The notes under the pieces: generated by a model | Told to the model about the DNA's origin: nothing | Seen by the model: the letters and a program-made list of their open reading frames with translations, nothing else | The model's database searches: none | Shown here: positions 21,249 to 64,000 of the stretch, one piece after another | How the letters are laid out: every line of letters begins with the position of its first letter | How positions within the stretch are numbered: position 1 is the stretch's first letter | Position numbers and translations under genes: made by a program | Origin: Candidatus Omnitrophota bacterium | Lineage (GTDB): Bacteria > Omnitrophota > Omnitrophia > Omnitrophales > Aquincolibacteriaceae | Reading direction: 5' to 3' | Assembly: GCA_035352955.1 (NCBI GenBank) | Contig: DAOPYQ010000003.1 | Location: 140,901-204,900, forward strand | DNA length: 64,000 nt

Positions 21249-24200
21249 TTACGCGGCCGTCCGAACCGATTGTTCGGCCACCATACGAAGATAAGTCTGG
21301 ACCGCAACGCTGGAAACCACAAAGTTCCGGCCCTTCGCCTGGATCAGCGCCTTCTGCTCAAAGAGGTTCAAGCGACGCAAGAGCTCATCGCAGATGTCGC
21401 TCGGGGTCATTGCCAAAGCACCGGATTTCGTGCCCGCCCGGATATCCGCCAGGTGGATCGCGGCCACCACCATCAACCGGTTCATGTAATCCCGTACAAA
21501 AAGATCACCGACTGAGGCCACATTCCCCACCACAGGATCAAACACCGGCGCCAACGTAACGACCGTCGCTTCCGTTCCGGTAACATACGGCACGTTGGAC
21601 TGATTCCGCGAAATGAAGTTCCGGTTCAGCGGTGCCTGACGGACCGTGACCCCTCTGGCCTGGAGCGCGGCCCGGACCTTGCCGTTCAACGCACCGCTAA
21701 CTGCCAGCTCATTGACACGGCTGGTTCTTTCGCTCGGGATCTTAAGGAATTGTTCCGCGAAACCCGCCAAGGACGGATCGAATGCCACAGTAAGATTCCC
21801 CTCGCCCTGCCCCAGCGTCGCATCCAGAGCTTGCATCCGTTCCGGAACGATCGTTGCGATCATCGCATCCGTCGTCTCCGCCGCCATCGCTGCCGGCATG
21901 AGGACAAGGTTCCTGACGCGGATCACAAACGGCATCACATCGCCGTAGGCCCCGAGATCGCGTTCCGCCGCGCGGCTGAACCCATCGCCCTGAATATAGG
22001 CGGCAGGGTCCGATTGGCTCATGACTTCCACCGAGAACTTTCCGCTCTTCGCGCTGATCTCTCCGCCGATCTTCCTGAGCTCCGCCCGGCCTTTCTTTTC
22101 CAACCCCTCCCGCACCGCCTCTGCCCCTTGATCTGCTGCGATCTTTGCGATCCGATCCGCATCCACGCTCACCAACTCGTCGATCATTCGGGATCCTGAC
22201 CGCTCCCTCACTTCGGTGTGAACATTTTCCATATCGAATATTTCGTAGTGCCGGCTACGTTTGTCAAATATCAGGATTTGGCGTATTCCCCCTACAGGGA
22301 TCGCCTCCTCCGTCGTAATTTCTCCGCTGGAAAATTCGTCTTTGATTTGGACTTTCGCTTTTTCGACCACAACAATCGCACAAACAAAGTCTTCGGAGAG
22401 AAGTTTTTTCTTAAAACCACCGCCCGCCGGCATAATGCTGTAATCAATCGCATCTTGTGGTTTTGCTGTCAAGCTGATCGAAAGCCCTGTTGTCTCATCG
22501 GGAGACATACCCTTGTTAACAGTTTCGGCCAAAGACGAATAGCGCAGCCGCATGCCTCGGTAAATATATTGAGCCCCCCGGTTGATCCTCGACGCTTCTT
22601 TTCTCCTGAAATCAAGCGGATCCAACGCATCCAGCTCGGGTATCGCACTTAAATCCAATTCGTCTTTAAAAACAACCGCTCCTTGTTCCGCCCGCGCCTC
22701 GGCTCGGACTTCCTTCCGCATTTCCGCGCGATGCGCTGCAGGAGCAAGAGAGCTCGCAACTTCCTTGAACCGTATCTCCAAAATATCCTGGCCCGATTTT
22801 TTTATGGAAACAGACGCGCCCGGCGTCTCGATGCGGGACCCGTTCTTGCGGACAAAAACAACCGTATCCCCGTCTTGTCGAACGTCATAGGCTTCACGCA
22901 GGACAAGTTCGAGCGCCCAGAGTGCGTTTTTGTAGGCAGGGCTCTTTCGGACCGCGGAAGGCTCGGGCTCAATGGAAATTACGCCCGTCACTCCCAGCAA
23001 CTTCGCAGCCTTCAAGGAAAGCGCCAGCAGCTTGACCACCGTCGGATTCACAGAATCTTGCCGGGGAACATCAAAAATCACATCGGGATGCGACTGTCCG
23101 TTCGAAAAATATCGCAGGAACGCCGCCCGATCAATGCCGGCCGGGATCCATGCCAGATCCGGAAGGACCGCGATAAGAAATTTAACGTTGGTCCGCGGGA
23201 AGGTCGTCAGGATAAGGGACGCGGCATCTTGGGCCACGGCATCCCCGTCCTCAACGGCTTTCAGGGTCTTGCGGAACGGCTCGGAATAATACCCGGGAGT
23301 TCTTTGATCAAACTTCTGGTCCCAGGACGCCAGCACCCTTTCAAGCCGGTCAAAAACTCCGGATGCGCTCCTCGCGTCCAGCGCTTGCCCGGTCGCATCA
23401 AAGGTCTTATTGTCCTCGGCAAGCCGTACAACTTCATCGAGAACGGTGTGCTGGAACTCGTTTTTGCGCAACTGGAGCTGTCCGCGATCTTCAGCGAACC
23501 CTGCCTGATCTGTAATACTGATGACGTAAATCAGATTCAGCAGGTTGCGGAATCTCTCGATATCGATCTGCTGCCCGTCTGCGGAAAGGAATGCGCGGAT
23601 TTCCGGGGCATTCAGAAAATCTTTCATGGAAACATCTGACAGTTCGCCGAACGCCAGCTCCGAAAAAAACGTATGATAGCGAATGGCCATCCGGATCATC
23701 TCGGTATCTGCGGGGCTGATCAGTCCGTCCGCCACAAGGCCATCAAGCAGGCCGAGTTCCCGGATCATATCAGAACCCACTCTGTCGTGGATCCTCATAT
23801 TCCGGAATTTACCGATATCATGCAGGAGGTCCGCCCAATACAGCATCCGGTAAGCCTTATCCGGATCACCGGGCGCAAGCGAAAGGACGCGCGCCTGAAG
23901 ATCCCGTACAAGCGATTCGCCTTGGTTTGTGCCCAAAAGACCGGAAAGATAATACCACTGTTCAAGCCGCCTCAGTCCGTCGGTAGCCGCCGGCTTTGCC
24001 ATCGAGCGAACCTGTAACGCTGCCGCAAGAACGTTCGTGCAATGACCAGCAACTCCATCCAGTTCAGTTTCCGCCGCCGCATCGATCGTGGAGCGGTCAA
24101 GCGCCAGGATCGTCCTCAAAAACACCCGGTAATCCTGATAGATCCGGTCATCCAACCGCCGGCGGATCTCAGCGGCCCTAAGTCCGCGGATCTGCGCCAG

Positions 24201-27200
24201 TTCCCGGAAAAACCCCATCGTTTCCGGCCCCGTCAACCTTTCAAACGTCGGTCTGATCGTACTTCCCGACTCCCCCCGCGCTTCGGAGCGGCTTTCGGCG
24301 CGCGGGGCGGAATTCTTTTCATACGCTTGCGCAAACGCATTAAAATCGCCGCCAAACAGGATCGTCCCGAAACATTTCGTACAATCTCCCGCATTGTGCA
24401 ATGTAAAATCACCTTCCGTGCCGGTCAAAAATGCCCGCGGCTCAAAGAACCCGAATTTCGTGTATTTAGGAACTCCTTCGTCCGTCAGTGTTTCCTTTAG
24501 GCTGACCTCCCCCGAATAAATTTGCACAAACACATCATGCATCAATAACTGCCACGGGGTTCCATCCGCGTTCCTGCGGAATCCCATCCTCTTGCCGATC
24601 GTCGTGATCGCTTTGACCCGGACCCCTAGATTTTTTTCCACTTTACCGGAGATCACTTTCAACATGTTGGGATCATCTTCCCCCGCGATCGAAGCCGACG
24701 GAAGGCTCCACACGCCCCCGTTATCCGCCAGCTTGGGATTCCTGAATGCAAACAGCGCTTCTCCTTTCTCGTTCAGAAGGATCATGGACACGGCATACGC
24801 CGTTTTTAACTTTTTCCGTGTAGGATCCGTATTCGCATCATAGACGATCGTCGAAGGATCCACATGCCAATCGGCCGGAATCTCCATGTGGACCTCCGCC
24901 GCAGGCGTTTGCGTGTTTAGAACTGAGGGAAAAACCTGCGCCCCTCTCCCAAAAAACTGGTCCCTGGATTCAATCATTTTCGCAAACTGCTCAATAGACT
25001 CGTCGGGATACCCCAACAGCCGCCCCAGCATTCGGTGATACTCAACAGATCCTATGGCAACAGGTCTACCGTCCGGACCGGTGGCTTTTTCCTCAAGCAG
25101 TAAAACGATCTGCCGCGCAACTTCAGGCGTTCCAGCAACAATCAACGACCACGCATTGCGCAACGGCTCTTGATTGTTCCCTTTATCTTTCCATTGCATC
25201 GTAAGGGTCTCCACCGACAAACCTCTTTCTTTTGCAATTTGGATCAAAGCCTTTCCTTCTTCATGTCTTACCACATCTTCGCCAGACACCAGCGCAGCGG
25301 GTTTTGAACCGGCAACAACAGCCGCCACATCGTCAACCCCTCTTGACATAACAAGCTCGCTCGGCATGATTTGCTCCTGAGTTGCCGCCCACCCGCGCCA
25401 TTTTTCGATCCGCTGCTCGGCAGCTTTCCGCGCAACAGGATCGATCAAGACAGGAGCCATATCCGCCCGCACCGCCGCCGGGAAATTTAAAGTGCCGGGT
25501 TTGATGTTCGAAATTGAAGACAGTTCCGGAGATCCGGCATTCACCTTTAAACTTTGGACTTCGGACGTTGAACTTGGCTCTTCCCGCTTCTCATCGCGGC
25601 GGGCGGGTTGGGACACGCCTTGGGCGACTTCTGCGGCGTATGCCTCGCTTTCGGCTTTGTAATATTCGCTCGCGGGATCGTTATACGGCGGAACGGGCGC
25701 CTTAAAGAACTGCGCGAAAAGCTGATAAATCGACCACTGATCCGCGAATTTATGCGAGAACAGCGTGACCGTCGTCCGGATCCGGGAGGAATAGGTTTTG
25801 TCGTTACCGAACGCTTTGCCGAGTGCGTCCCCGCGCCGTCTGAACAATTCTTTTTCATCCGGGCTGAGGATGTCCTCCAGCGTCTTCACTTCCCGGTGAG
25901 GAAGAACCAACGCCGAAAAACCTTCCGGCAGATCCTTTTTCACGGTCTCCCGGATACTCTTCATGGCAGCGGAAGTCATAAACGGTATCGCGATGATCGC
26001 CTTCGCAGTCGGATAATGCCTCGCGATCTCCCGCAGTGTCGCGACGACCTGCTGAGCACTGTAACAGGCGTCATCAACGATCACAAACGTCCGGACCCCG
26101 GAAGACTCACGCTCCCGCATCAGATTTTCATAATAAGGTTTGAAAGGTTCCACATAAGCCGTAAAAACCGGCGCTTTCAGACCCTCCCGGATATTCGACC
26201 AGACCCAGCGACGCGATGTGTGGGGCCGTCCGAAAAGCACCGCGTACGGACCGGCCGCCTCCAGGGCAGAGGCAAGCGCTTCTTTCGTTTTCATCAACTC
26301 CGTAAAAAATTTCGCTTCGGTAATAATCTCCCCCTCCGCAACAACTTTCCGGCCCAGCGCGAGGATGGCCCGTCGATCCGGATCTTTGGCCTTTTTCAAC
26401 TGCGCGTCCCATGTCGCGAAAAACTCTTCCTCGTCTCTGATCCGCTCCGGCACTTCTGGCGTACGTTTCTCGGCACGTTCGGCGGAGCTTTCCTTCGCCG
26501 CCGATTTTACCGATGACGGTTTCGCGTCCGCCAATTTGACCAGCGGAAGGGACAACTTCGCCGTACCGTTATTAAAACGACCCATCGGAAGGGGTAATGC
26601 CGATTGACCTTTCCATCCCAGCACCGGCTTCTGCAAACGTCCCGTAAGCCAGGGACCAAGTTCCTCAAGAGGGTCCACACTGATCACGATCTCGGGATTC
26701 CCATCGATTACCAAAGACCCCGCGTTCGTCCAACCGCCTTCACCGCGCCTGCCGATGCCAGACACGACCAGTTGCTGCTGCGCCGCCGGTGAGAGCGAGT
26801 TCCAGACACCCCCCACCTGGTCCTTCGGGATGTAGCTCTTCATGCGAGCCTTCATACTCCCAAAATCCACGCCGGATTCCTTGGACAGGAATTGACGGAC
26901 CGCGCTCATGACAAATTCGCGGGTCTCCTTTGCGGCTTTGGCGGAATTCAAGCCGTTCGTCGACGGCACCCGGATATTCCAGACCCTCCCGTCGGGCATG
27001 AACAATATCAGGGAGACCAATGAATAGCGCACGTTGGAAGCCTTCTTCCAGTGCATTTCGGCGAACGGCAGGGCCAGAGAATTGACCAGCTGCTGGATCC
27101 ATTGATCGAGATTATTCGCGGACGGGTCGAGAACCGCCTGCACATCCACGGCGATCGAGGCCGAAACATTCCTGGGACGCGCGGGAGGAAGCGTTTTGAC

Positions 27201-30200
27201 GACCTTGTTGCCGTCCACCTTGGCGCTAGCCGTCTGAGCGATCTGATCCACGGGCACCCCTCCGGCCAAGCTGACCACGGCTAATTCCGCGGTCTCACGA
27301 CTATTTCCGGAGGGCGCCGCCCGGTGCAAATTTGTTTCCGAGTGAAGCTTGAAACCTCCCTTCGGCGCCACGATTTGGATCTTTTTCTGTAAAAATTTTG
27401 AACCGATCAGATCCGTCAACGTCCGAAGCTCAATACCTCTCGAAACTTCAACGCTATACGCCCCCAAGCTATTCGTCACGATATTGCGCATGCGGGTATA
27501 AAATTTTTCAAGCGTCAGGGAATTCTCACCGCCGGTGGCCCGCGCAAGCCTGATCAGATTCTCAAAATAACGTTCACGCCCCGAAGCGCCGCGTTCCCGA
27601 TGTGTCAGCCACTCCATCACATCAATCACAAACGGACTGATCGTCAAAAATCTCACAAGGTGTTTAAAAAATTGCGCCCGGGTAGGAGGCTCGTAGGGAA
27701 CCGTCCCCTTCGCGGCAAGAGCAAGCAGGTCGGCAATTGCGCGTTCTTTCGGCGACAATTTCCCCGAAGCGATCAACTCCTCGGGGTCGGAGCCCGCGGG
27801 AGGATGATACCAGCCATTATCTCTCAGGATCAGCCGCAGCGTCCGTCCCCGGAGTGTCTCGGTGCTTGCCCCGAACCATGCCCGATCGCTCGACCGCAGC
27901 CACGCCTTCCACGGGATGAGAACCCAACGGTAGAGCAACCCGCCCAAAAGAGCGAAGACGAGGTACACTTTAAAAAACTGATACAATCCCGGCAACGGAT
28001 TGAACCGTTGTATCTCGCTTTTCCATTCGTCAAAAATCGATTTGAGGGTCCCTCCAAGCGACCGGGCAGGCGTTTGACGTCCCGGAACGGGCGGCAGGGA
28101 TTGAACCCGGGGGTCAAGGTCCTTCACTCCCTGGGGAATATCACGGACCTTTCCGTCTCGCAAGAAAACCCACCCGTGAGGATACACCCCTTCTTTGAAC
28201 TGGCCTTCTGAAATCAGATTCCCCGCCTGAAGAACTCCTGTTTCAAGATCGGTGAGCCAGAATAAAGCAATGCTCAGAAATCCGAATCCATCGCAATCTG
28301 TGGCCCCGCTCATGAACACCCTCGACACGAACGGAAGTTCTGTGTTCAATCCATCAACCCGGTTGTCCTTGCTATACTTGAGCGTCGCGAGAAGATTGAG
28401 CATCTCCCTTTCCCTCAAAAATCCCGCAGGAAGCTTCTGCGCCAAAACAACCTTCTGCCGTATCTCCGCAGGCAAAAGCCTCATCACTTCTTCTTTCGAA
28501 TAAGCGCGGTTTTCGGCAAAATTGAACATCACCGCTTGCCCGGGCGACGGAAGGTCACCGTTCTTTTGATCCCCCAGAACAATCGTGATCGTTTTGCCGA
28601 CAGGCCCGTCAAAAGAAAATTCCCAAATTCCGCGCGGGTCGTACCGCAGCTTGGCAAGTTCCCCGCTTTCCGATCGGGCTTCCAACACGATCGTTCCGGG
28701 AGCGAGACCTGTCACAAGGCTCCTGGCCTCCGCCTGATCCGGGAACAGATCCATCTTGGCAATAGCCCTTCTTCCCGTAGGAGAGGTGTATTGCCGGAAG
28801 TCCGTAGGCCCCGGGCCATATTCTCCGGTAGCGGGATCCAGATAACGGAACCCCATCAAAGGAAGATAATCAAATCCGAAATGGTGCTTCAGATCCTGAC
28901 GATGCCGGTACAAGGCAAGCGTCCTACCCTCGGAATTCTCGTCCCCTCCGCCGGTTTCAACGCGTTCCGACCGGCCGTCGCTGTTAAATCCCGCGTTCCG
29001 CGGACCACCACCCTCCGTCCCGGCCGTACCCCGGCCCATCGCCTTTGGCCGCATCTTGTTAATTTTTTTAAGCGTTTCCGCCGCATTCTTTTCGATCTTT
29101 TGAGCCATTTCGATCTGGTCCCGCCGCATTGCCTGGTACCAGTTCATCCCCGACCACCCCGCACGGAGAGTAAAACCGACGCTCAGGATCATCAGAATCC
29201 GGCCGAACCCTCTGAGAACCATCGCCGCCAGACGCCGGCGGTCGCGCTCGCCCATAACCTTTTTCCCGAGATAGCCGTACCGCTCCGCCATCAGCCGCAT
29301 AGCGTCTCCATTATTCTCGAGACCAGCCTGGTCCACGCCAAGAAACTCTAAACTCCGGCCCGAAATGAACGCTTCAAGAGCATCCTGCAAGACGATCTCC
29401 GAATGCTCCTCCAGACCCGTGAAAGCGCTCCAGTAAAGATCCGAAAAGATCTTCCTGGCGGCTTCAAAATTCGTACTCTGGGGGTCACGAAGCCATTCGC
29501 GGAGTGTTCTCACATAAAAGCGCGACCTAACCCCGGGATAATGCGGTTCGGGAAATAACCCCAGGTCCATGCCGGCACGAAATAGCATCAGGGAATCGCT
29601 CAGCGTTTGTTTCCGAAGCGTGGTTTCCCGGTCAAGGATCACCGTATCGATCACATTCTTGTCCTTTTCCGAAACGTTGTTCCGCAGATCTTTGAATCGC
29701 GTCCACGCGGCTTCGGCCCGCGCCGAGATCGTCTCGAGAGAAAGCGCCTTGACCTTCCGGACAAAATCCTTATTGCCGAAGATCTTGAGACTCCGCGAAG
29801 GAATATCGAAACCGAGCCTCCTGTCGAGCAGCAGATAAAGAAGCCCGGTCGAGGACTGATGATAGTCATTGGCCTGCGTAAGGTATTGCTCAAAGATCTG
29901 TAACGCGAGAGGATCGGCCGCGGCGTATTTTTGGCAAGTTTTGATCAGAAGAACGATCTGTTCATGGACCCTCTCCACTTCTCCCAGGGCGGTCACAAGA
30001 TCGTTCAGGTTCCCGTTCGCTTTCGAGACAGCATTCGCCATCGCTTGATCGTGTTTTTCCGAAAGATCCGCCACTGCGGCGAACAAGGACTCCAGCCTGT
30101 CGGCCGGTCGACCCTTCGCGCCCCGTTTCTCCGCGCGAAAAGCACCTGCCGCTGTCTCTGGGGTCATTATCAAAGGCCGCTCCTTACGGAACCCTCTCAA

Positions 30201-36611: not shown

Positions 36612-36923
36612 AAGTGATGTAACTTTTTATGCTCTCAAAGTTGCTTTACACGCCCCTCCGTCCGGCAAACCCACTTTTTAAAGACCCGTTGATTAGGTTT
36701 GCGAAGCTTGCATTTTGTCTCTACAAAAAGTTTGCCATCAAGTTAATGCTATTGCAAGATGTCGATAGAATTATTTTAGGTGTTTTTGACTATAATTTAC
36801 TATAATTAATTATGTTTGCTATATATTGCTATACGCAAAATGGCAGAAATTTTGAGAGGAACGAACAAATTCTCGGGAATAAACCTCGAAGAAAACCCTG
36901 ACTAAGAGGAGAAAATCAGAAAA

Positions 36924-37019
36924 CTACTTTTTCCGCAGGACGCGGAGATAGGAAAAAAACATCACGGCGATAATAAAAAGCCAACTCGAAATTAGAAAGA
37001 TCCAGCCTGAAAGCTTCAT
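36924..37019 (-). CDS. 31-aa single-TM peptide translationally coupled to the NSS transporter
   Basis: MKLSGWIFLISSWLFIIAVMFFSYLRVLRKK. Its ATG overlaps the transporter TGA stop as ATGA (37019-37016). Confidence 0.3.
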   Translation of the reverse strand: MKLSGWIFLISSWLFIIAVMFFSYLRVLRKK

Positions 37020-48746: not shown

Positions 48747-48747
48747 T

Positions 48748-50830: not shown

Positions 50831-50873
50831 CTTTCCTTAAAAAGTTGCGGAATTATAGCATAAAAAAATACAA

Positions 50874-51400: not shown

Positions 51401-51413
51401 CGCTGCCAGGATC

Positions 51414-53063: not shown

Positions 53064-53104
53064 GGGGAGAAGTATATCACAAGGACTCTAGACAGCCAAA
53101 GGGG

Positions 53105-53135
53105 ACAGGCAGTCGATGAATGCCCGTCCCCTCTG
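53105..53135 (-). terminator. possible terminator hairpin downstream of giant gene 2
   Basis: GGGGACAGGC-agtcgatgaat-GCCCGTCCCC is a 10-bp stem with 1 mismatch. On the minus-strand transcript it is followed by a weak TTTGGCTGTCT. It lies about 75 nt past the stop. Confidence 0.3.
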
Positions 53136-53208
53136 TGGGAAACTTACTACGCCGAGGCACCTGCGCTCAATGCGCAAGTACCTCGACGTGCAATCCTTAG
53201 GAAAATCA

Positions 53209-56200
53209 CTATGCCGAGGCCGCGGTACGGCGCGCACCCGCGAGACTGGCGGTAAATTCCGTCAAAAGCGCGGTCACGCCCAATTCGTCCATAGACGCAA
53301 AATCGAGTTTGTGCAATTCAATAAAGTTATCGTCCAGCAGCTTGACAGCCGAACCGACCACGCAAGCCGTTTGCCCAAGGGCACCCGCCCCCGCCTTGAC
53401 GCGAAGAACACCGCTTTTCTTGCCCGCACGGATCCGACTGACCTCCGAAAGCTCCGGCACATTCCCGTCCGTGACAAAGGCCATCGGCACAACCTTCTGG
53501 TCGCGGACCCTGTTGAACCAGCCCAGGAGATCCGCCGCGTTTCTGAAATGCACGACCTTGAGGTTTTTATCCAGAACGTCCGTCGCACCGGCCGCAGCCA
53601 ACGCCAGCTTAAAGTTCAGCACGTCCGTATCCCGGACACCGACAAAGACCAGGTAGCCCGTCACCTTCGGGTCATGGCGAAATAGCGGCACCTCCGGCAA
53701 GATGTCCCTGACATCCGGAATTTTTGTCCGCTGGTCAATGACAACACGCTCGACGGAACTCGCCCAAGAACGGTCGATCAAGCGGACCGTCTCCGGCCGT
53801 GTCTTCCGGAGAGCTTCCGGCACCGGAAGGACCTCGCGGTAGTGAACCGTCCCGGCAAAAAGCTCCGGCAAGATCCTGAACCGATAGTCCGGAGAAGCGT
53901 AAAGCGTCGGAGACACCACACTCCCCGCCACCCCCCATGCCACCCGGATCTTCGTACTGAGACTGCTAAGGTCAGGCATCGCGATCTGCGGGATCACAAG
54001 CTTCTCGTTATCCATCCACAACTCGGCACGAAGTTTATTTTCCGTGCGTTGCGTTTTATTTCTCTTCAGAAGCGTAAGGATCGCTTCCCTGGTTTTTTCC
54101 ATACTGGCTATTTCACGAGCAAGCTTTACATAAGCATCATTCTTCGAAGCCAAGCTATGGGCGAGCACAGTTTCATATTCCCCGGTCCCATAAACACGTC
54201 CTCGATCACCGGGTCCTCCCGACACCACGATTCCGGAGCGTCGAGGCGGAATCCGCATGAGTTCTTCTTTTTTGACCTGAAGCTCAACACGCAGAACCTC
54301 GGAAAGCGTTTGCAACGATGAAAATGAGGAAGGATCGTTCAGCGCCTTCTGGAATTGCTGTTCCGGTACCGACCGCAATTCCATCCGGCCAAAGGGACCC
54401 TGGATATCGGCGCCCATATCTTCATTGACCTGGGCTGCATCATCGTCCGAACCGGACGAAGCGACAGCTTCCCTCGCGGCGCGTTCCGCCTCTTCACTCG
54501 CCACCATGGAACGATACGCCTTCACCGCAGCCACCGAAGCGGCCGTGTGGTACTTCTCCAATGCGGTTACAACCAGATCACTGATGGACCGGTCCTTCAA
54601 AGCTACGAGCAATGCGGGAAGGGCTTGGGTTGCGGCATGCCTTGAAAACATCGTGGCAGCCTTCCGGCGTCGCTCAAGGGACGCATCGGTCAGCCAAGGG
54701 ATCAGCCGCCCGACGATCTCGGTATCCCCGATCTCCCAAAGGGCCTCCGCGATCGCAAGCCACACATCGCCGGCCTTTTCGCTATCCAGAGCGCTATGCA
54801 ATGCGGACCCCACCGAGGGATCTGCGGAACCCATCGAGGGATCTTTTGTCATCGCCAACGCCGCGGCCGCAGCCTTCCGGCCCCGGTCATTCTCATTCCC
54901 CAATGCCGAGAAAAGTCCGGAAAACTCCTTTTTACTCCACAATATTCCGACCGCGATCTCCCGGGCCAAGCGATCGTTATCATTCAGAGCCGCAAGCACC
55001 AGAACAGGAATAACCTTGGGGTCATTGATTGCGCCGAGCGCTTTAAGCGCTTCGTAACGGATAGAAACCCGGCGATCCGTCGAAGCCCGGGCCAACACAT
55101 CCACCGCGCGCGGATCTCCGATCTCGCCAAGTTTTTTTGCCGCAGCGGTCCTGCGATCCTCACCGTAATGGTTGAACCAGCCGTCATAAAACTTCGGCTC
55201 CACATCGTTCATCGCTCTCCGGAGCTGATCTTCCTGAGCCCTTGCCGGCCGGAGTGGCGCACGGGACCCTGCATCCTTAGGAGCCTCCGCCGCACTTTCC
55301 TGCGGCATCGGACGGGAACCTTCCAGCGTGACCGTCAATTCGCCCGCTTTGCCCGCGGAAATAAGCGCGCCGTCAAAAGGTCCGCCACCACGCCCGTCGC
55401 CCACCGACTCATAAGTGGGATAAACTTGCGGGACCTCGACATAACTGACCTGAACCTGTTCTCCCCGGATCAAACAAGACCGGAGCGTATTGATCTCCGC
55501 ACCGTTCAAAACATTGTAGTTGCCCTTCGAGTCATTGATCCATTCGAAGTACCGTTGCATCTCCGTCAGCCGCGGGTCCCGAAGCCTCAACAATTCACCG
55601 GCCGCCTGGATCCTTACCAAAGAATCCGTATCGCCGAGGATCCCCACGAGAGCCAGAGACGCCTTTGTCCCGAGAGCTTTGACCACGGCGATTCTCACCT
55701 CGGACGATGGGTCCTTCAAGGCCTTCGTCAACCTCATGATCGCATACGTATCCTCCATCGCGACAAATTGAGCAAGGTCCTGCGCCGCAGAAACTCTGCG
55801 TTTGATGCCATTTTTTACAAAGATACGGTCCCAAACCTGCGGCTCCAGAGAATCCACAAGGGCTTCATAAGCCTCACGCGCCTCACGGTCACGCACGTCA
55901 TCGGGAAGACGGTTGTCATCCTGATCGATATACCTTCCCCTCAATTCCGCTCGGGAAGACTCATCGCCATCCGCACCGTTAAGGTTTGCTTCGCTTGCTC
56001 GCTCGCGCTCAGCATCGGCATATTGTTGGATTTCATCCATAACCTTATAACCTTGGCGCCGAACAGGCTGTGCGAAACGGGCCATTAAAGCTCTTGAACC
56101 CGGCCGATCAATGGTCCATACACGGAAAGTCCTAGATACTTCAAACCCCCCCTCTCTTTTAGACATGTCCTGTGCTTTATCAACCAACGCCAAGGCTTCC

Positions 56201-59200
56201 GAAAGCGAAATATCCGGAGCTTCTGTCATAATGCTATCGAGGATAGGATTCTGGCGCCGCTGCTCAGCTATCAACTGACGTTCTTCCCCGGCAAGTTTCG
56301 CGGCACGGACACGTTCGCGCACTTTGCTTGTGATCCACCCGGCAATACCACCCACCACAGCTGACGCGACGGCAAAACCCGCGATCATAAGAATCTGATG
56401 TTCGCTCCAGGCCGTCTGCAATGAGCTGGCGACACCCGCCGCACCGTTTTGTCCCGCCATAAGAGCCAGAGGAAAAGGATTCATCAGTGGATGAGTGCTA
56501 CTACTTCTCCCATCTTCTCCGGGTCTAAACTGACCCTCATCATCCGAACTGGTGGTTTCATTAATTGCCGATTCACGCTCCCGGGCGATCTTTTTTTCTT
56601 CGACATATTCTGCATACCTTGCCGGCTTTAAAAGACGCCAAAAAACCGGGATCATAAAATTCGCAGCTGCCGCAAAGGCCACGGCGGCAGCGACACCCAT
56701 CGCAAATGCAAGCAGGATCGTCTCGGCGCGTAAGAAAGCCGGAACGGTTACCATCAAGTAGACGCCAAGAACAACCCCTGTCGCAAAGCCAACAAACCCG
56801 CTAATCACCGAGCCCATCACGATAGTATCCTCGGGTGTTCGTTGTTTCGCCTGGATACCGGACGAGTCTTGATCCTGCATCGCGGAGCGACGTTCGGAAC
56901 GAGGTGAGATATAGCTGGAGTTCAAGAGTGTTCTGATTTGGTCGGGTGTAAATTCGTTCTGAAAATCGGTGAACGTTTTAACACCCGGTGCGGCGTAGGT
57001 GGCCGAAAAACTATCGAGCCAGGGCTGATAATTGACCTGAAAACCAAGCACAGATAGATACCTCTGCGTGTAAAATGCCATGGACGCCTGGCTCAACTGA
57101 GCCTTGGCAAAACCTGTCAATAAGCCCTGGGATTCCAGACCGCTCAGAGCCACGCCGTTAAATTCGCTTGTAAAGGCAGAGTAAGGCCGCCATCCGTAGT
57201 TGGGCTCGATGTAATAGGGCGCAACACCGCTCACCCACCCCAGCGACGCCTCCACATACCCGCGGGCAAAGAGGTATTCGTGAATAAAATTGGACATCGC
57301 GGGGAAATCCCTCTGAGCCAGGTCAAACCGCGTCGCCTCATCGATCGGCAGAACCTCGCGGGTGCTCAGATTGACCTTTTTGAACATGGAAAGCGAGGTC
57401 CTGATGATGGCATATCCCGGCATCAACGTCAGGTCCACGGGATTGAGTGACGCTTCGGCAAACCGTGAATCCACGATCCAAGTGGCCGCGCCGGTGACAA
57501 GATCGACAATGCGTATTTGCGGATCCAATCCGGTTCCCGCCCGGACCTGATCAAAGATCAGCGTCTTCCCGTCTGGAGTAATGTAATAATTGAAAATGTA
57601 ACCCAAGGGAACGGAGGGTCCGCGGGTCCACGACATCAGATAGATCTCCTGACCGGTCAGGAGATTCTTGATATAGTGATCGGTCCCATTGTACCGGTCA
57701 CGACTCTGAACGGCAAAATTCGGATCGACCTCAAGCCTCTCCCACCAATTCGGCAACGCCGGAGGGACAAACACCACACGCGCGAACTCCTGTTTACCTG
57801 AAGCGGCCGTTGAAAAATGCAAAGTCTGAGCGTTGGTGGCCGGCTGGATCTCCCCCGCGATCCAATTTGTCGCGGGAAGCGTGGGAGAAGTCATGACCTG
57901 GTAATTCCCGTGCAAAGACACCTCTGCCGTTATTTGGCCCGGGCCTTTGATCCCGGTAACAATATCTCCAAACGCCGAAGCCCCCATGAGTCCCGCCGCA
58001 AGGGCCAGCGGAAGCGCATAATAGTCCCCGACCCCCGGTCCCGAATAACCGCTATCCGAAGGTCCGTCATCATCGTCCGACGCGGCAATCTGCGCCTCTC
58101 GCTCTGCCCTTTCTCTCTTTCGCTCAGCTTCCAAAACTTCCTGATTTGCTTTATAACTTTTCGGGTCGAACAATCTCCAAAACCCGTCGCAGATTAGCGC
58201 CCCCGCGATCGCGCCCATAAACGCCAAAAAAAGACTCCCAAAGATTGCCGCCAGAAAAAAATCCTTTATCCCACCCGCCATGACCACGAAAGGCAACATA
58301 TGCGGTTGATGAAAAAGCAACGGTACGGCAGAAACGACCCCGAATAACGGACCGCCGAATAAAAAGACTTCATACCAAAGACCGAGCCGGCCGCGTAAAT
58401 GCACCTGTCTTTCAGCAACCGTCATCGGCTTCCGCAGCTCCGCACGATCACTCCCGGCACTCTTTTTGAGAGAACGGCTAAGCTTGTTCAGTTCAAAATC
58501 CACCTGCTCGCGGCTCCTCCTATGCGAAAAGATCGCGGCCAGCTTCCCTTCAAAATCTTTCATATCCTGTTGACGGGCCCCGGAACCAAGCGCCTTAAAA
58601 CCGGCCGAACGGATATAATCCCGCCATACTTCGTAGGCGTGGTCCGAATTCACCTTTGCGTATTTGGGAAGGGCTACAAGAAAACCTTCAAGAAGCGCAC
58701 GCTCATCTTCGGAAAGGTCCGCCCAGGCACGCGAATTCAGCAGCGTCGTAAGGGCGTCCACATGAGGATCAAGTCTGGCAATATTTTTCTCCGTTGCCCA
58801 GAATGCTTTCCATACGGCCAGTAAGGCGGCCTGTTCTACATTCCCCCGGGCATTACGGTATCCCGCGGTTTCCTTGAAACGGAGGAACCGTTCGGCATCA
58901 CTCTCATCCATGAATTGGGAGAAAGGAACGCCCACCAATTTTTCCGCCGGCAAACCCACCTTGTAATTGGCCGCATCACCGCTTCCGGCACGCAAGCGCG
59001 CGTCTCTTTCGTCGAATGTCCGGCGACGATTTCTCTGGGCTTCCGTCAGCCTGCGTTCGGCGCGATCAACCGCACTATCGCGCAGCTCCGCCCTGATCTT
59101 CTGGGTAACTTTTTTAGAAGAAGGCTTCACCTGGAAACGGTTATCCTGATACTCCGCCATCTGCCGGAGCGGCGTGACATGGCCGGCGCGTTTAAAATCA

Positions 59201-62200
59201 TGAATCAGATCGCCCTGACCCGCCACATAGGCTTCGTACGGGTTGTAATAAGTTTCGCGATAGAGGATCCCCTCATCCAGCAACCGGTCATTTTTCGCCA
59301 TCAATGCGATCGAACGCACCCCGGGAATCGTGGTCGCGTTCCCGGACGCCGTGTTCGGCGCGATCACGTCCCCCGCCTGCCCGGACCGTTGCGCCAGCAC
59401 CTGGATGACCATCGGAAGTTCAGGAAGCCCATCGGCATTGTCAAGCATCCGGTCCATCAGTTCTTCCGCGTTCGCGATCTGATACAGCTTGTTATAGGGA
59501 TCATCCTGCAATCCCGTTTCCGCCTTCACCCGCTGTTTGAGCTTCCGGCGAAGCCGCTGGGCATCCTCGGATTTCAACTGATCGCCTTCCACCAATGCGG
59601 AAAAAGGCTCCGGAATTTCTTCACTCCCGTACTCGAGCCCGCCCTTCTCCCCCGTAAAATTCTGGAGGACGACGTGAGCGGAATTCGCTTTCATGGTCTT
59701 CCGGAAATATTTGTACGCCGCGTGAGGCCGGGAGCCCGCCGCAGATACCGGATCCAGGAGCGTCAGGTCATTGACCCGGTGGATCGCGAAAGAACGGCCG
59801 CCTTTTTTCAGAAGATACCGGAACGCCGGGACCGCCATGATCCGGAAATCTCTTTCGGCGTCATCCCACCTGTACGACATGTACGGCAAAGATGCGTAGA
59901 TCAGATTGAACCCGTGGTTGTAGCTTTTGTCGTTACGCATGTAACTGAAGACGAAACGCTTCTCGGCATCGCGCCATTCAAACCCGCTCGGCTCGTCGTC
60001 ATTCATCACAAAAACAATATTTTCTTTGTCTAGTCCGAAAAACTGGTTCTCTTTAAAATCCCTGGCCACATCGTCCTTGATGTTCGGATTCACGCTGATG
60101 AAAACCTTTTTGCTCGCAAGGGCGTTTCGAACCAAGGCCTCTGTCACGGTCTGATCCACCCCCTCATGCCGCGCGTACTCGACGGCCTGCCTGCGGATCC
60201 CCTCGACCAACGCCAGCATATGCCGTACCCCGAGCCCAAGATGCCGGGCATTCTCCGGAACCGGCCGTTCCGCTTCCGCGATATAGATCCCGAGTTCTTC
60301 GACCTCTTCGGTCAGCCGGTCGTATTCATCCCCGGAAAGTTCAGGGTCCGAATCTTTCGCGCGATTGAATTTCTTGCGCTCTTCCTTAACGCGCTTGAGT
60401 TCCGCCTGAAGGCGGGCCAATTCTTCTTCCTCTTTGGCGTCGTCGATCTTGTTCTCGAGATCCTCCTGCGCCATCTTGAGATCGAGGTAACGGGATATCT
60501 CAGCGCCAAGATCCGTCTCGAGAATCCGGAGACGGGTTTTCTGTTTTCTCTTTTCAGCCTCGAGAGCCGTCTTATGCTCCTTAAGAAGGCGTATCACTTC
60601 CCAAACGTCAAGGTTCCACATCCTGAATTTCCTGACCGTGACGGGATCCTTTTCGTTCTCCTTCGAAATAATGCCGATCTTGACAAAGCTCTTAAAGAGA
60701 CGGTCCGCCTTCCCGGCGGCATAGATGAATTCGGCCTTGATCCCCGAAACCGCATCCTTGGCCGCATGCCAGTAATATTCCTCAGGGACATCCTCCATCC
60801 ATTCGACATGCCCCGGCTTGATCAACCCTTTCTTGCTCTCGAACTCGCGAGCGTTCATTTTCCCGGCTGGAATTGAGGGATCATAAAATTTTTTCAGGAC
60901 CTCATGCATGTTCAGGCGGATCGGTGCCGTCTTCCGGGCGGACACTTCAAAAATCTTGTATTCGATCTCGTCCGACCACCGGACGTCATTGCTGCGAATC
61001 ACCCATTCGCGGGCCGCATACTGGATCGCCGCTCCGGCGAGGAGGGCCGCTTTCTCGTAGGGCTTCATCGTCTCAAAGCCGGGGTGCAAAACCACGATGG
61101 CATTGCGATAAACGTTCACGACCGAATCCGCGCTCTCACCCACGCGGTACACATGGTCCAGCACTTCGACATTCAACCGTTTGAAAGCTTCGTACACGTT
61201 CACGGGAACGGAAGTCCCGGGAATGACCACGTTCAAGCCCTCCAAAAAAGGCGCAACTTCGGCCGCAAGCTTTTGCTGGGCTTCTTTCTTCTTCCCGGCG
61301 TCGCCCGGTTCGCTGTTCTCAAAAATGATGTCCAAGTTCTGGATCATATCAAGCGCCGCCGCGGCGTTCGCCTGAAGCTGCACACGATTAACCTCTTGAT
61401 ACGCGGAAAAAAGAATATCCAGCAGGATCCGCCGTTTTTTCAAATGCTCCGTCTCATAATATTCCTTGTAAAGAGCCACCACAGCCGCCGGATCGTTGCG
61501 TTTCTCCAGAAGGTCCTGGACTTCGTACCCGAGCACTTGGCCCAGGAACCAGCGGGCCGCCGACCGCGCATCCGCATAACCCGAATAAAGCAGAACACGC
61601 GCGTCCTCAGCCATGATCGTTTTCACGGGATCCGCGACGGACTGATAGCTTTTCCAAACATCCCCCGCCCGGTCATCCTTCCCGAAAAACCGCTCCATTT
61701 TGTGATTACGATGGTGGGACGGATCTTTCGGAAAATATTCGATCTTCCCACGTCGTTCCGCGCGGGAGCTGACAGTCGCCAAAGCCTTCGAAGAGATCGG
61801 CACGGTCTGGAAAACGGGAATGCCAAAATCAGGACTAAGATCGAGAGACGTTGAAAAACCGTTGCGGGAAGAAACAGGCTCGACGCTGATCCTTTCCAGA
61901 ATCGACCGGCGGACACCGCCGAACCACGCCTGGGCCTGATCGATCCCCGTCACGGCGACACGCTGGGCGCGGTCAACGACCCCGAGCAGCGCATTCATCT
62001 GAGAGGTTTCGAAATCGCGCGAGCCTAAAATGGAATGGAGATAGACCTCATGGTCGCGTTTGGAGACTTCACTGATACGCGGAGTGATCTGGAGATAGGA
62101 ACAATTCCTCGCCCGCGCGAGAGCCTTAAGACCCTCGGCGTGGAACCCGCCGGTCACGATCACGGCGCGCTGCTGCTTCGTCTCGCCCATTTTGATAAGG

Positions 62201-63696
62201 GCATTACAGAACATTTTCTGTTCGCGAATGACCGCTGTTTCATAAAAACTCATCGCCGAACGATAAAGGGAAGCAACTTCTCCGGATAACGGATAACGGA
62301 TAACGGATGACGTTGCCACCCCGTTGTTCGTCACCCGACCTCCAGCCTCCGGCATCCGGTTATGAAGCTCTTCATATTCCGCGCGTGTCAGTTCTAAGGA
62401 AAACAGCCGCTTCAACAGATAAAGCTGCCGGGCCGCGGCGAGACATTCCTTGTCGGCCGGCGTTTTTGCCAAAGCGTTTTCGATCCCGTCTTTCAGGCGC
62501 ACGATCTCCTCCTGGAGGCCCTGGCCTTCTATCTCCTGCATCAGAATGACATGCTGGGAATAAAGGGCCCAGTTTGGCCAACGATCCATGGAGAAATCCT
62601 TCGGGAGTTTCTCGAAGGCATTGTCGAACGCCCGGCGCAACGGCGAATAGTCACCGCCGGACATGGGAAGACGGAAGGTGGATGAAGCTTTGGTTTTTAC
62701 GCCCTCCTCCATCCTCCATCCGCTGCCCTGCCTGAAGAGGTCCAGAATCTCCTTCGAAATATTCCGCTTCTCAAGCTCTTTAAGAAAATCCTCCGATTCT
62801 TTCATCGCCTTTTCACGGTCGATCCCGGAACCAATGGCCTGGAGACGGTAATAGCGAACGAGCGAAGGATATTCGCTCTGATAGAATGCATCCGAGAGGT
62901 CCTGCTTCAGGTGCTTCTTCCCCGCTTCTCCGAGAACTTTAAGCCATGCCTCGAAAGACAAGGCTCCGGAGCCGAAAGCCTCCTCCTGGCGGACGATCTT
63001 CAAAAGATCTTTATTCAGTTCCCCAGCGAACTTTTTGTCGACCTCGGCGCGGAGCTGCCTCAGAAAGGCCTGCGCGTTCTTGTCGGATTTCACGACCGAA
63101 ATGAATGCGTCGCGGTCCTTTTTATAAGCATCGAGATCTTCAATGCCGTACGCCTTGAAATCGGCGGATGGAGCCTTCGTCATTCGCTTTGCGTTATCCG
63201 TCTTCCGATAGGCTTCATCCTGGTTAATGAGAAAATTCTCAGGCCCCGAAAGATAGCCTTCGGCGACCAACTTGTCCGTGACCTTGTGGTTAAAATCGGG
63301 CTGCTCCGGAAAAATACGGAACATTTCGGGGTGCAGCTTCCCGGACGCGCCTTCGAGAAGCATCAATTTGACGGAAGAGTTCTTTTCGATGTACCCGAGG
63401 AGTTTTTCGATATTCTTTTCCGCCTGATAATTCCCGTGCGCGGACTGGATGTGAATGAATGCGGGGGCCGAAGGATCCCCTTTGAATAAACCGCTCACCC
63501 GGCCCAATTCCGCAGGGATCTGGAGGGTTCCCGCGACAGACGCCGACACTTCGGCCGCAGAGACACCCGTCGATGCGAAGCCGTTAGGATTCCAGACGAT
63601 GGAGGTAACCGTAAAGGTGATGACCGTAATGAGGGCGATCAACGACTTATTTCTCTTCAAGACCGGATCGGGGTGGAAAGAGGTTTCTCTCGTCAT
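53209..63696 (-). CDS. giant (about 3,495 aa) signal-anchored multi-domain protein: TraB/TIKI-like N-domain, coiled coil, two internal TM modules, beta-rich region, HEAT/PBS-lyase repeats, conserved C-terminal domain
   Basis: A 10.5 kb uninterrupted ORF, paralogous at both ends to giant gene 1. Probable start is MTRETS at 63696, with AAGGA 13 nt and AAGG 4 nt upstream of the ATG. The ORF track start at 63759 reads through an upstream palindrome. Motif coordinates: FIHIQSAHGNYQ (about 63420); VIVTGGFHAEG (about 62160); HEAT repeats (about 54600-55800); TM modules (about 58150-58450 and 56300-56900). Confidence 0.85.
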   Translation of the reverse strand: MTRETSFHPDPVLKRNKSLIALITVITFTVTSIVWNPNGFASTGVSAAEVSASVAGTLQIPAELGRVSGLFKGDPSAPAFIHIQSAHGNYQAEKNIEKLLGYIEKNSSVKLMLLEGASGKLHPEMFRIFPEQPDFNHKVTDKLVAEGYLSGPENFLINQDEAYRKTDNAKRMTKAPSADFKAYGIEDLDAYKKDRDAFISVVKSDKNAQAFLRQLRAEVDKKFAGELNKDLLKIVRQEEAFGSGALSFEAWLKVLGEAGKKHLKQDLSDAFYQSEYPSLVRYYRLQAIGSGIDREKAMKESEDFLKELEKRNISKEILDLFRQGSGWRMEEGVKTKASSTFRLPMSGGDYSPLRRAFDNAFEKLPKDFSMDRWPNWALYSQHVILMQEIEGQGLQEEIVRLKDGIENALAKTPADKECLAAARQLYLLKRLFSLELTRAEYEELHNRMPEAGGRVTNNGVATSSVIRYPLSGEVASLYRSAMSFYETAVIREQKMFCNALIKMGETKQQRAVIVTGGFHAEGLKALARARNCSYLQITPRISEVSKRDHEVYLHSILGSRDFETSQMNALLGVVDRAQRVAVTGIDQAQAWFGGVRRSILERISVEPVSSRNGFSTSLDLSPDFGIPVFQTVPISSKALATVSSRAERRGKIEYFPKDPSHHRNHKMERFFGKDDRAGDVWKSYQSVADPVKTIMAEDARVLLYSGYADARSAARWFLGQVLGYEVQDLLEKRNDPAAVVALYKEYYETEHLKKRRILLDILFSAYQEVNRVQLQANAAAALDMIQNLDIIFENSEPGDAGKKKEAQQKLAAEVAPFLEGLNVVIPGTSVPVNVYEAFKRLNVEVLDHVYRVGESADSVVNVYRNAIVVLHPGFETMKPYEKAALLAGAAIQYAAREWVIRSNDVRWSDEIEYKIFEVSARKTAPIRLNMHEVLKKFYDPSIPAGKMNAREFESKKGLIKPGHVEWMEDVPEEYYWHAAKDAVSGIKAEFIYAAGKADRLFKSFVKIGIISKENEKDPVTVRKFRMWNLDVWEVIRLLKEHKTALEAEKRKQKTRLRILETDLGAEISRYLDLKMAQEDLENKIDDAKEEEELARLQAELKRVKEERKKFNRAKDSDPELSGDEYDRLTEEVEELGIYIAEAERPVPENARHLGLGVRHMLALVEGIRRQAVEYARHEGVDQTVTEALVRNALASKKVFISVNPNIKDDVARDFKENQFFGLDKENIVFVMNDDEPSGFEWRDAEKRFVFSYMRNDKSYNHGFNLIYASLPYMSYRWDDAERDFRIMAVPAFRYLLKKGGRSFAIHRVNDLTLLDPVSAAGSRPHAAYKYFRKTMKANSAHVVLQNFTGEKGGLEYGSEEIPEPFSALVEGDQLKSEDAQRLRRKLKQRVKAETGLQDDPYNKLYQIANAEELMDRMLDNADGLPELPMVIQVLAQRSGQAGDVIAPNTASGNATTIPGVRSIALMAKNDRLLDEGILYRETYYNPYEAYVAGQGDLIHDFKRAGHVTPLRQMAEYQDNRFQVKPSSKKVTQKIRAELRDSAVDRAERRLTEAQRNRRRTFDERDARLRAGSGDAANYKVGLPAEKLVGVPFSQFMDESDAERFLRFKETAGYRNARGNVEQAALLAVWKAFWATEKNIARLDPHVDALTTLLNSRAWADLSEDERALLEGFLVALPKYAKVNSDHAYEVWRDYIRSAGFKALGSGARQQDMKDFEGKLAAIFSHRRSREQVDFELNKLSRSLKKSAGSDRAELRKPMTVAERQVHLRGRLGLWYEVFLFGGPLFGVVSAVPLLFHQPHMLPFVVMAGGIKDFFLAAIFGSLFLAFMGAIAGALICDGFWRLFDPKSYKANQEVLEAERKRERAEREAQIAASDDDDGPSDSGYSGPGVGDYYALPLALAAGLMGASAFGDIVTGIKGPGQITAEVSLHGNYQVMTSPTLPATNWIAGEIQPATNAQTLHFSTAASGKQEFARVVFVPPALPNWWERLEVDPNFAVQSRDRYNGTDHYIKNLLTGQEIYLMSWTRGPSVPLGYIFNYYITPDGKTLIFDQVRAGTGLDPQIRIVDLVTGAATWIVDSRFAEASLNPVDLTLMPGYAIIRTSLSMFKKVNLSTREVLPIDEATRFDLAQRDFPAMSNFIHEYLFARGYVEASLGWVSGVAPYYIEPNYGWRPYSAFTSEFNGVALSGLESQGLLTGFAKAQLSQASMAFYTQRYLSVLGFQVNYQPWLDSFSATYAAPGVKTFTDFQNEFTPDQIRTLLNSSYISPRSERRSAMQDQDSSGIQAKQRTPEDTIVMGSVISGFVGFATGVVLGVYLMVTVPAFLRAETILLAFAMGVAAAVAFAAAANFMIPVFWRLLKPARYAEYVEEKKIARERESAINETTSSDDEGQFRPGEDGRSSSTHPLMNPFPLALMAGQNGAAGVASSLQTAWSEHQILMIAGFAVASAVVGGIAGWITSKVRERVRAAKLAGEERQLIAEQRRQNPILDSIMTEAPDISLSEALALVDKAQDMSKREGGFEVSRTFRVWTIDRPGSRALMARFAQPVRRQGYKVMDEIQQYADAERERASEANLNGADGDESSRAELRGRYIDQDDNRLPDDVRDREAREAYEALVDSLEPQVWDRIFVKNGIKRRVSAAQDLAQFVAMEDTYAIMRLTKALKDPSSEVRIAVVKALGTKASLALVGILGDTDSLVRIQAAGELLRLRDPRLTEMQRYFEWINDSKGNYNVLNGAEINTLRSCLIRGEQVQVSYVEVPQVYPTYESVGDGRGGGPFDGALISAGKAGELTVTLEGSRPMPQESAAEAPKDAGSRAPLRPARAQEDQLRRAMNDVEPKFYDGWFNHYGEDRRTAAAKKLGEIGDPRAVDVLARASTDRRVSIRYEALKALGAINDPKVIPVLVLAALNDNDRLAREIAVGILWSKKEFSGLFSALGNENDRGRKAAAAALAMTKDPSMGSADPSVGSALHSALDSEKAGDVWLAIAEALWEIGDTEIVGRLIPWLTDASLERRRKAATMFSRHAATQALPALLVALKDRSISDLVVTALEKYHTAASVAAVKAYRSMVASEEAERAAREAVASSGSDDDAAQVNEDMGADIQGPFGRMELRSVPEQQFQKALNDPSSFSSLQTLSEVLRVELQVKKEELMRIPPRRSGIVVSGGPGDRGRVYGTGEYETVLAHSLASKNDAYVKLAREIASMEKTREAILTLLKRNKTQRTENKLRAELWMDNEKLVIPQIAMPDLSSLSTKIRVAWGVAGSVVSPTLYASPDYRFRILPELFAGTVHYREVLPVPEALRKTRPETVRLIDRSWASSVERVVIDQRTKIPDVRDILPEVPLFRHDPKVTGYLVFVGVRDTDVLNFKLALAAAGATDVLDKNLKVVHFRNAADLLGWFNRVRDQKVVPMAFVTDGNVPELSEVSRIRAGKKSGVLRVKAGAGALGQTACVVGSAVKLLDDNFIELHKLDFASMDELGVTALLTEFTASLAGARRTAASA

Positions 63697-63718
63697 AGCC
63701 TTGGATTCCTTTTTTAAT

Positions 63719-63735
63719 TTAGATTTTAAATCTAA
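63719..63735. promoter_or_regulatory. perfect palindrome TTAGATTT-T-AAATCTAA 23-41 nt upstream of giant gene 2 start
   Basis: Two 8-bp perfect inverted arms with a 1-nt spacer, in the AT-rich leader. Candidate operator or promoter element. Confidence 0.3.
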
Positions 63736-64000
63736 CAAGAATCTGAAAAAGGTTAACACGCACTGATGGTTTTGAACAGAGGTTGACGCAAAAAAATCTT
63801 TATAAATCGTTTAGTGGTAAAGAGAAACCGCTTCCCTTGAACTTCCCGGTTTTTAAAATGAAGAAATGGGACATGAAAACCCGATTTATAGCATCTTCTA
63901 ACAATTAAAAATTCACGACGCTACAATGAAGTCCGTTATGCCGACTTGCACTTGCCCCTGTCGGGCAAGTACTAACGACATACGGACCAATGAAGTCCGT

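Follow-up and report, generated by a model that had tools for sequence, protein, structure and literature searches.

The DNA examined here is a 64,000-nt stretch from a Candidatus Omnitrophota bacterium (NCBI GenBank assembly GCA_035352955.1, contig DAOPYQ010000003.1, positions 140,901 to 204,900 of the forward strand), the whole of which is referred to below as the window. It carries two giant open reading frames (ORFs), here called A and B:

21249..36611, minus strand: giant gene A, 5,120 amino acids (aa) from an ATG start (ORF list and translation)
53209..63696, minus strand: giant gene B, 3,495 aa from the ATG at 63696 (ORF list and translation)

Judged by their sequences, A and B genuinely belong to a very large and as yet unnamed family of Omnitrophota giant proteins, joined by a conserved N-terminal "head" domain. 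The explanation favored here is that they are two paralogues of an Omnitrophota family for which neither Pfam nor NCBIfam has a model; a rough probability of 0.62 is assigned to it, as a single joint figure covering the paralogy, the fold of the head, the mosaic body, the tail and a putative hydrolase function.

Integrity of the two giant genes

An earlier note on this DNA had described two uninterrupted minus-strand ORFs of 15.4 and 10.5 kb, and both are indeed open, with exact copies in several independent assemblies. The open frame of B continues upstream to a GTG at 63759 (53209..63759, 3,516 aa), and public gene callers take the ATG. At NCBI, A is listed as HNX68553.1 / HPS36883.1 ("HD domain-containing protein") and B as HNX68568.1 / HPS37278.1 ("HEAT repeat domain-containing protein"), all from Candidatus Omnitrophota bacterium. 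GC content is even across the window, at about 0.55, and self-BLAST found no internal repeats in A or B.

One possibility to be considered with genes of this size is that they are assembly artefacts or pseudogenes, their like ends coming from chimeric joins. An observation in this direction is that in one JGI assembly a -2 indel near window position 57255, within a cgcggg run, splits B after residue 2145 into proteins of 2,178 and 1,348 aa; we read that split as a probable assembly error or minority variant. Exact copies of the A protein lie on four public contigs (among them a 204.9-kb ENA contig and NCBI GCA_035403665.1) and of the B protein on seven (NCBI, two JGI samples and ENA), and the DNA of B is intact, with 0 mismatches over 10,488 nt, in the four contigs compared. 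Because independent assemblies agree, this explanation, very improbable in our estimation, is rejected; at 55% GC, moreover, chance could not produce open frames of 15.4 and 10.5 kb, and thousands of homologues have the same head-first architecture.

A shared head domain

The heads of the two proteins lie as follows:

34782..36443, minus strand: head domain of A (residues 57-610), with a predicted TIKI/TraB/EreA/ChaN-like alpha/beta core
61897..63549, minus strand: head domain of B (residues 50-600), BLASTP against A at E 1e-32, family head hidden Markov model (HMM) at E 3.6e-169

They align in a single BLASTP high-scoring segment pair, A20-561 against B42-609 (B numbered here from the GTG, ATG numbering being 21 lower), with 25% identity and an E value of 1.3e-32. 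The Smith-Waterman score of 314 was reached in 0 of 100 shuffles (mean 41.5, standard deviation 5.4; z ~50), so that the proposed homology of the N-terminal domains extends beyond shuffled controls, and over ~550 aa instead of the ~450 aa first estimated. The family head HMM, which has both A and B among its 12 building sequences, matches A at E 2.5e-248 and no other ORF in the window apart from B. Scans of residues 1-700 of A and B against Pfam, NCBIfam, PADLOC and PHROGs gave no match to the head.

The family is large. A word-indexed protein search with the head returned seven relatives; when 1.84 billion cluster representatives were searched exhaustively with a profile, 9,461 clusters (counted at the 50% identity level) matched at E<=1e-3, 6,289 of them at E<=1e-30. 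The earlier view that proteins of this kind are rare is therefore mistaken where this lineage is concerned. Each of the 150 best-scoring proteins has the head at about residues 1-650, and their lengths range from 0.3 to 8 thousand aa (kaa), with a maximum of 7,984 and a median of 2,906. A genome scan found 59 head loci, with four to five loci in single metagenome-assembled genomes. Every named genome among them is from Omnitrophota, including the Omnitrophus fodinae single-cell genome and Taenariivivens baikalensis, in accord with the lineage given for the window and with the NCBI names for A and B. The scan used one peptide pattern, and so it undersamples the family and is a narrow taxonomic survey.

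Fold and conserved residues of the head

An AlphaFold model of A 1-620 (mean predicted local distance difference test score, pLDDT, 71; predicted TM-score, pTM, 0.66) has an alpha/beta fold, with helices flanking a central parallel beta-sheet, and matches solved members of the TIKI/TraB/EreA/ChaN superfamily. Its strands, as assigned by DSSP, are at residues 101-106, 133-136, 185-188, 484-489 and 507-513. The best structural matches are two Ere-like "succinoglycan biosynthesis" proteins (2rad and 2qgm), HopBA1 and EreC, along with ChaN, a TraB-family protein and RRSP. The features of the A head are as follows, with conservation assessed over 153 representatives of the family:

35202..36038, minus strand: all-helical insertion of ~280 aa (A 192-470), splitting the core between strands 185-188 and 484-489 in the model (DSSP)
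36285..36299, minus strand: motif 1, I-Q-D-A-H (105-109), at the C-terminal end of strand 101-106
36201..36203, minus strand: Glu137 in motif 2, "LEGA", just past strand 133-136; Glu in 152/152
35238..35240, minus strand: Arg458 in "ALERD"; Arg in 152/152
35133..35144, minus strand: motif 3, G-G-F-H (490-493), just past strand 484-489; GGFH in 151/151

In motif 1, His109 is found in 152/152 and Asp107 in 149/152 representatives, and the two form a putative catalytic pair. Gln106, Glu190, Tyr195 and Trp570-Arg571 are also invariant. The corresponding motifs in the B head are IQSAH (83-87), LLEGA (113-117), IREQ (490-493, with Arg491) and GGFH (516-519). RRSP and the Ere enzymes have a 2His/2Glu site layout (PMC6254334); in the modelled head, Asp-x-His, Glu and GxxH stand at strand ends, with Asp in the place of RRSP's first Glu, and the position of the invariant residues right after the core strands suggests the layout of that site.

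The likeness to the TIKI/TraB/erythromycin-esterase group had been proposed from the xxAH and GGFH motifs. Structure favors it, and these motifs hold the invariant His109 and His493; at the level of sequence it lacks a significant match. The HMM match to PF01963 or PF05139 that had been looked for was not obtained with A or B, neither of which gave any match, and none of the 12 family heads reached the gathering threshold of PF01963, PF05139 or PF04187. Thus the head lies outside these Pfam families and within the wider fold superfamily only. Among the 12, sub-threshold matches came from one member each: TraB_PrgY_gumN (E 0.017), Cofac_haem_bdg (0.096) and Erythro_esteras (0.25). Matches to Naa15 and threonine dehydratase in PDB sequence searches were judged spurious. 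We therefore place the head, as a new and divergent family, in the TIKI/TraB/EreA/ChaN fold superfamily.

Membership in this superfamily need not mean catalysis. The head could instead be a non-catalytic binding or sensor module, like ChaN, which binds haem, or PrgY (peptide sequestration), displayed on the outside of the membrane and either reporting to or anchoring a giant structural, adhesive or regulatory scaffold. The top structural matches, which include ChaN and a TraB-family protein, are in keeping with this. However, His109, Glu137, Arg458 and His493 are invariant across some 150 diverged representatives, which is more typical of a catalytic site, and a sensor is on the whole considered unlikely.

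Mosaic interiors

Beyond the head, BLASTP found no other similarity between A and B at E<1e-3, and their interiors are therefore unrelated at this level. Recognizable interior modules are:

32394..34073, minus strand: interior module of A (847-1406), shared with family members P0021 (2327-2869, 45% identity) and P0019 (2059-2569, 40%) by BLASTP
25584..26456, minus strand: interior module of A (3386-3676), 67% identical to P0019 5049-5338 by BLASTP
23652..23846, minus strand: HD (phosphohydrolase) domain of A (4256-4320), PF01966 E 2.8e-5, 24.8 bits against a cutoff of 22
59134..60969, minus strand: interior module of B (910-1521), 32% identical (E 1e-63) to part of a 13,941-aa neighbor
54577..55749, minus strand: HEAT repeats of B (~2650-3040), Pfam HEAT_2 E 1.5e-23, PDB alphaRep/HEAT chains down to E 5.6e-27

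The first of these is also partly matched by P0010 (2784-3151 with A 1042-1422, 32%), and the second contains a weak, below-cutoff match to PRTase-CE (PF24390, E 0.0011). No recognizable domain was found in the rest of either body by Pfam, NCBIfam, PADLOC, PHROGs and PDB sequence searches.

The neighbor sharing a module with B is encoded by a third giant gene directly upstream of B, past the right end of the window; in public contigs its stop codon lies ~128 nt beyond position 64000 and its start about 42 kb farther upstream. Its product is 13,941 aa long in JGI Ga0116247_10000007 and 13,889 aa in ENA k141_3448, and ends ..AEIRAAQVVGKSA (..GKSA). The module, of about 600 aa, is in its last 3,188 aa (BLASTP), and the gene may be a further paralogue of A and B.

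Mosaicism, first noticed for the A-B pair, extends to the whole family. In an all-versus-all comparison of 106 full-length members the head was common to 5,565/5,565 pairs, an interior segment to 2.0% and the tail to 2.7%. A and P0019 illustrate the pattern: the head is 42% identical, one interior module 40% identical and shifted by ~1,200 residues, a second 67% identical and the tail 53% identical, with no match between these segments, so that an interior module can be more alike than the heads. Six sampled relatives had FHA, HEAT, SpoIIE/PP2C, methyltransferase, AAA or LRR domains, or none recognizable.

Conserved ends around shuffled interiors recall MARTX toxins, and another possibility is that these are secreted multi-effector toxins of a predator or parasite: export and translocation would be the task of the ends, the interior would supply a series of effectors to be delivered into host or prey cells, and the TIKI-like head would either cleave the effectors free or be itself an effector, like RRSP and HopBA1. 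Both of the latter (a MARTX effector and a type III effector, respectively) are among the best structural matches, and the payloads (PP2C, FHA, HD, methyltransferase, AAA, LRR, HEAT) are of an intracellular-signalling type. Omnitrophota have moreover been proposed to be predators or parasites, with giants at the cell surface (PMC10066038; bioRxiv 10.1101/2023.11.21.568195). Yet Pfam scans of A and B found no RTX or translocation repeats and no autoprocessing domain, and the neighbors of both genes are housekeeping, without secretion-system genes; we regard this toxin model, too, as improbable. Some of the same payloads (HD, FHA, PP2C, AAA) would also suit a signalling role for a sensor head, and HEAT and LRR repeats would suit a scaffold.

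N-termini and membrane topology

The hydrophobic segments relevant to topology are:

36489..36611, minus strand: A 1-41, basic n-region, h-region ALGTVFVFIVTSVTW and small-residue c-region PVEAAA (hydropathy scan)
63568..63696, minus strand: B 1-43, basic n-region and hydrophobic segment LIALITVITFTVTSIVW (hydropathy scan, family N-termini)
34119..34175, minus strand: A 813-831, strongest hydrophobic segment after the head, candidate transmembrane (TM) helix (Kyte-Doolittle 19-mer mean 2.01)
56338..58368, minus strand: B 1777-2453, two clusters of strongly hydrophobic segments, candidate TM helices (hydropathy scans)

Both proteins thus begin, by hydropathy, with the basic tail and single hydrophobic segment ascribed to them earlier. 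Among 143 family N-termini the n-region has a net positive charge in 90%, the hydrophobic core begins near residue 12, and small-residue motifs of the TPASA/AP or WAQ/P type follow it. The N-termini of A and B have the look of Sec-type signal peptides or signal anchors, and the head would accordingly lie outside the cytoplasmic membrane.

The description "multi-TM" is apt for B, with five to eight hydrophobic segments after the head (~1777 to 2453), and not for A, with one strong one. Each of the alternatives introduced above finds something in these patterns. The head of A lies between the N-terminal hydrophobic segment and the strong candidate at 813-831, as might be expected of a sensor, but this two-TM arrangement is not general: the next hydrophobic segment of B is at ~1777, and half of the family has none. 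For secreted toxins, the roughly half of the family without a strong TM segment beyond the signal peptide would be suitable, but the many hydrophobic segments of B suggest residence in the membrane.

Tails and the terminal dipeptide

The C-terminal features of the two proteins are:

21252..22031, minus strand: A tail (4861-5120), helical bundle, five-stranded alpha/beta unit and terminal helix ending ..SVRTAA-COOH
53212..53511, minus strand: B tail (last 100 aa), ending ..ARRTAASA-COOH, having in common with A the terminal dipeptide class and the IRAGKKSGVL 10-mer only

The fold model of the tail has a pLDDT of 84.5. Of 119 listed members longer than 1.5 kaa, 105 end in one of two dipeptides (84 in AA, 21 in SA), and the termini of the others look truncated or frameshifted; as a control, one of 23 other window proteins ends in AA. 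A (..RTAA) and B (..AASA) each carry one of these endings. Upstream of the dipeptide the tails fall into several types (clusters of 17, 16, 12, 9, 7 and smaller), A being in the cluster of nine and B a singleton. An HMM of the A tail type, built without A, matches A 4995-5120 at E 1e-16.

A related C-terminal region of ~100 aa in A and B had also been proposed, and this does not hold: only the IRAG[TK]KSG[AV]L 10-mer aligns. The score for the last 100 aa was reached in 10 of 300 shuffles (z at most 2.3), and scores for the last 60, 150, 250 and 400 aa were within the noise of shuffles. A right-anchored position-specific scoring matrix (PSSM) put the terminus of B first among 3,477 windows, marginally (4.3 versus 3.7) and with the PSSM sequences pre-selected for the dipeptide. 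A phmmer search of the B tail against 104 family tails found nothing significant, a word-indexed search with the last 500 aa of B found no homologue, and hhalign of an A-type tail profile against the B tail gave E 0.17 over a short collinear stretch. Pairwise C-terminal homology of A and B, non-significant by shuffles, family HMM, PSSM, phmmer and hhalign, was accordingly rejected, and the family-wide terminal signature should replace it.

The 10-mer lies at 21414..21443 in A and 53404..53433 in B, 55-65 and 65-74 residues from the respective C-termini. Its place in tails of the A type is a variable loop that follows the "HLADI" helix, and a weak "dQ..VP" stretch is collinear with it in the hhalign alignment; together, and non-significantly, the two hint at a very remote homology of the tails.

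Proposed function

If the favored explanation of A and B as paralogues with a hydrolase-fold head is correct, a signal peptide or anchor would export the head and keep it attached to the cytoplasmic membrane on its outer side. The head, ~550 aa with its core split by the ~280-aa helical insertion, is followed by a body of thousands of residues. Its Asp-x-His...Glu...Arg...Gly-Gly-Phe-His set, placed by the model at the C-terminal ends of parallel strands, would correspond to the arrangement used for hydrolysis by active superfamily members, and the head may work as a hydrolase, most likely a peptidase, on the giant protein itself or on a substrate at the surface or in a partner. For some Omnitrophota giants, processing by N-terminal C39 or S8 peptidases has been proposed (bioRxiv 10.1101/2023.11.21.568195), and the role of the head could be analogous. 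Modules of the body are gained, lost and exchanged between paralogues, those seen here being candidate TM helices, HEAT and HD. Most members end in an alpha/beta-plus-helix tail of one of several sequence types, with a free Ala-Ala or Ser-Ala carboxy-terminus; more speculatively, this dipeptide might be a tag that a partner recognizes, for instance a protease that binds C-termini or a machine for export or unfolding.

Several points weigh against this explanation. Foldseek searches of the head model against the PDB gave no match at E<=0.001, PDB sequence searches with profiles of the full head and of the insert-deleted core, and with the bodies, found no TIKI-family chain, and no sequence method gives a significant link between the head and the TIKI superfamily. 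That the invariant residues cluster in space is deduced from the order of the strands, and some members of the superfamily are non-enzymes, ChaN and PMT C1/C2 being inactive (PMC6254334). The topology depends on hydropathy and charge rules; a strong TM segment past the N-terminus is found, at a strict threshold, in only 56 of 106 full-length members; and many payload domains are cytoplasmic in type, which is awkward with export. The B tail belongs to no detected tail type (tail HMM score ~1 bit), and the 150 representatives analysed are the best-scoring of 9,461 and no random sample.

A more far-reaching variant, which we consider distinctly unlikely, is that the head and the Ala-Ala/Ser-Ala tail together make up a conserved chassis specific to Omnitrophota, in which an exported TIKI-fold protease head matures or releases the giant and the invariant free C-terminus is a handle that lets a dedicated partner take hold of thousands of different payload proteins. 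Candidate partners would include a PDZ-type C-terminal protease, an AAA+ unfoldase or an exporter, and processing could take place in cis or between paralogues. If true, ultra-small bacteria living as predators or parasites would have a general and so far unrecognized system that builds and processes interchangeable giant cargo and displays or delivers it.

Relationship to known systems

Giant genes account for a striking share of small Omnitrophota genomes. Those described so far include that of a 39,678-aa protein of Velamenicoccus archaeovorus, and "Archaeovorin", "Dockerin-type", multi-enzyme and tandem-repeat classes have been named (PMC10066038; bioRxiv 10.1101/2023.11.21.568195; 2026 preprint), the 2026 preprint sorting them by Pfam content and topology. 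They are known to be poorly conserved, with few domains (PMC10066038), and A and B resemble them in phylum, in very long ORFs, in having a signal peptide and/or TM helices, in few annotated domains and in poorly conserved interiors. The known giants are larger (genes of more than 20-30 kb, versus 3.5-5.1 kaa for A and B), and the neighbors of A and B are housekeeping genes, not pilus or secretion genes. Features of the Archaeovorin and Dockerin types include SecA_DEAD/SecA preprotein-binding, C39 or S8, dockerin, TSP3 and discoidin domains (bioRxiv 10.1101/2023.11.21.568195), whereas A and B lack Pfam matches to SecA_DEAD, C39, S8, dockerin, TSP3 and discoidin. A text search of papers on Omnitrophota giant genes, the bioRxiv and 2026 preprints among them, found neither a TraB/TIKI/erythromycin-esterase-like head nor a conserved Ala-Ala terminus, and a full-text literature search found no paper joining TraB, TIKI or erythromycin esterase with Omnitrophota or Omnitrophica.

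Compared with TIKI, TraB, PrgY, GumN, Ere (EreA-C, Bcr135/136), ChaN, RRSP and HopBA1, the A/B head differs in its core-splitting insertion of ~280 aa and in the additional invariant residues Gln106, Glu190, Tyr195, Arg458 and Trp570-Arg571; it stands at the front of a giant protein of 2-8 kaa, and is so far confined to Omnitrophota. MARTX toxins are like the family in their very large size, conserved terminal regions and mosaic, recombining interior. Their module RRSP has the TIKI fold (PMC6254334), but in A and B the TIKI-like domain is the constant head instead of variable cargo, and RTX repeats, a cysteine protease domain (Pfam, NCBIfam) and adjacent type I secretion genes are all lacking.

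The phenomenon of giant genes is known, the finding made here is real and more general than first thought, and the head is a variant of a known enzyme superfamily. With A and B already public, the gain is in classification and testability, and not in a new kind of biology. Description of the giants as poorly conserved and near domain-free has blocked functional work; that thousands of them share one strongly conserved hydrolase-fold N-terminal domain, and most of these a C-terminal signature, offers a family definition (and potentially a domain model), an expressible piece of ~550 aa, and a framework of constant head and tail with a swappable body.

Other features of the window

The other genes of the window are those of anaerobe housekeeping: pyruvate:ferredoxin oxidoreductase, ADP-forming acetyl-CoA synthetase, NrdD/NrdG and a PPDK-like protein, as well as MiaB, a sodium symporter, DUF2339, an amidase-LysM protein, a transaldolase-PGI fusion, HflX, MiaA, ArgRS, Ogt and NadE. 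No secretion or pilus genes were found within the window. Scans for tRNAs and Rfam families gave no match in the window, including the intergenic regions of ~300-400 nt upstream of A (36612..37015) and of B (63697..64000).

Two ORFs have no Pfam match:

73..1317, plus strand: ORF of 414 aa
9941..10414, minus strand: ORF of 157 aa

The fusion protein, of 958 aa, joins transaldolase (PF00923) to phosphoglucose isomerase (PF00342) and is encoded at 43122..45998 on the minus strand. A marked AT skew of +0.27 at 40001..42000 coincides with the minus-strand gene for the DUF2339 membrane protein, and probably reflects the codon composition of that gene.

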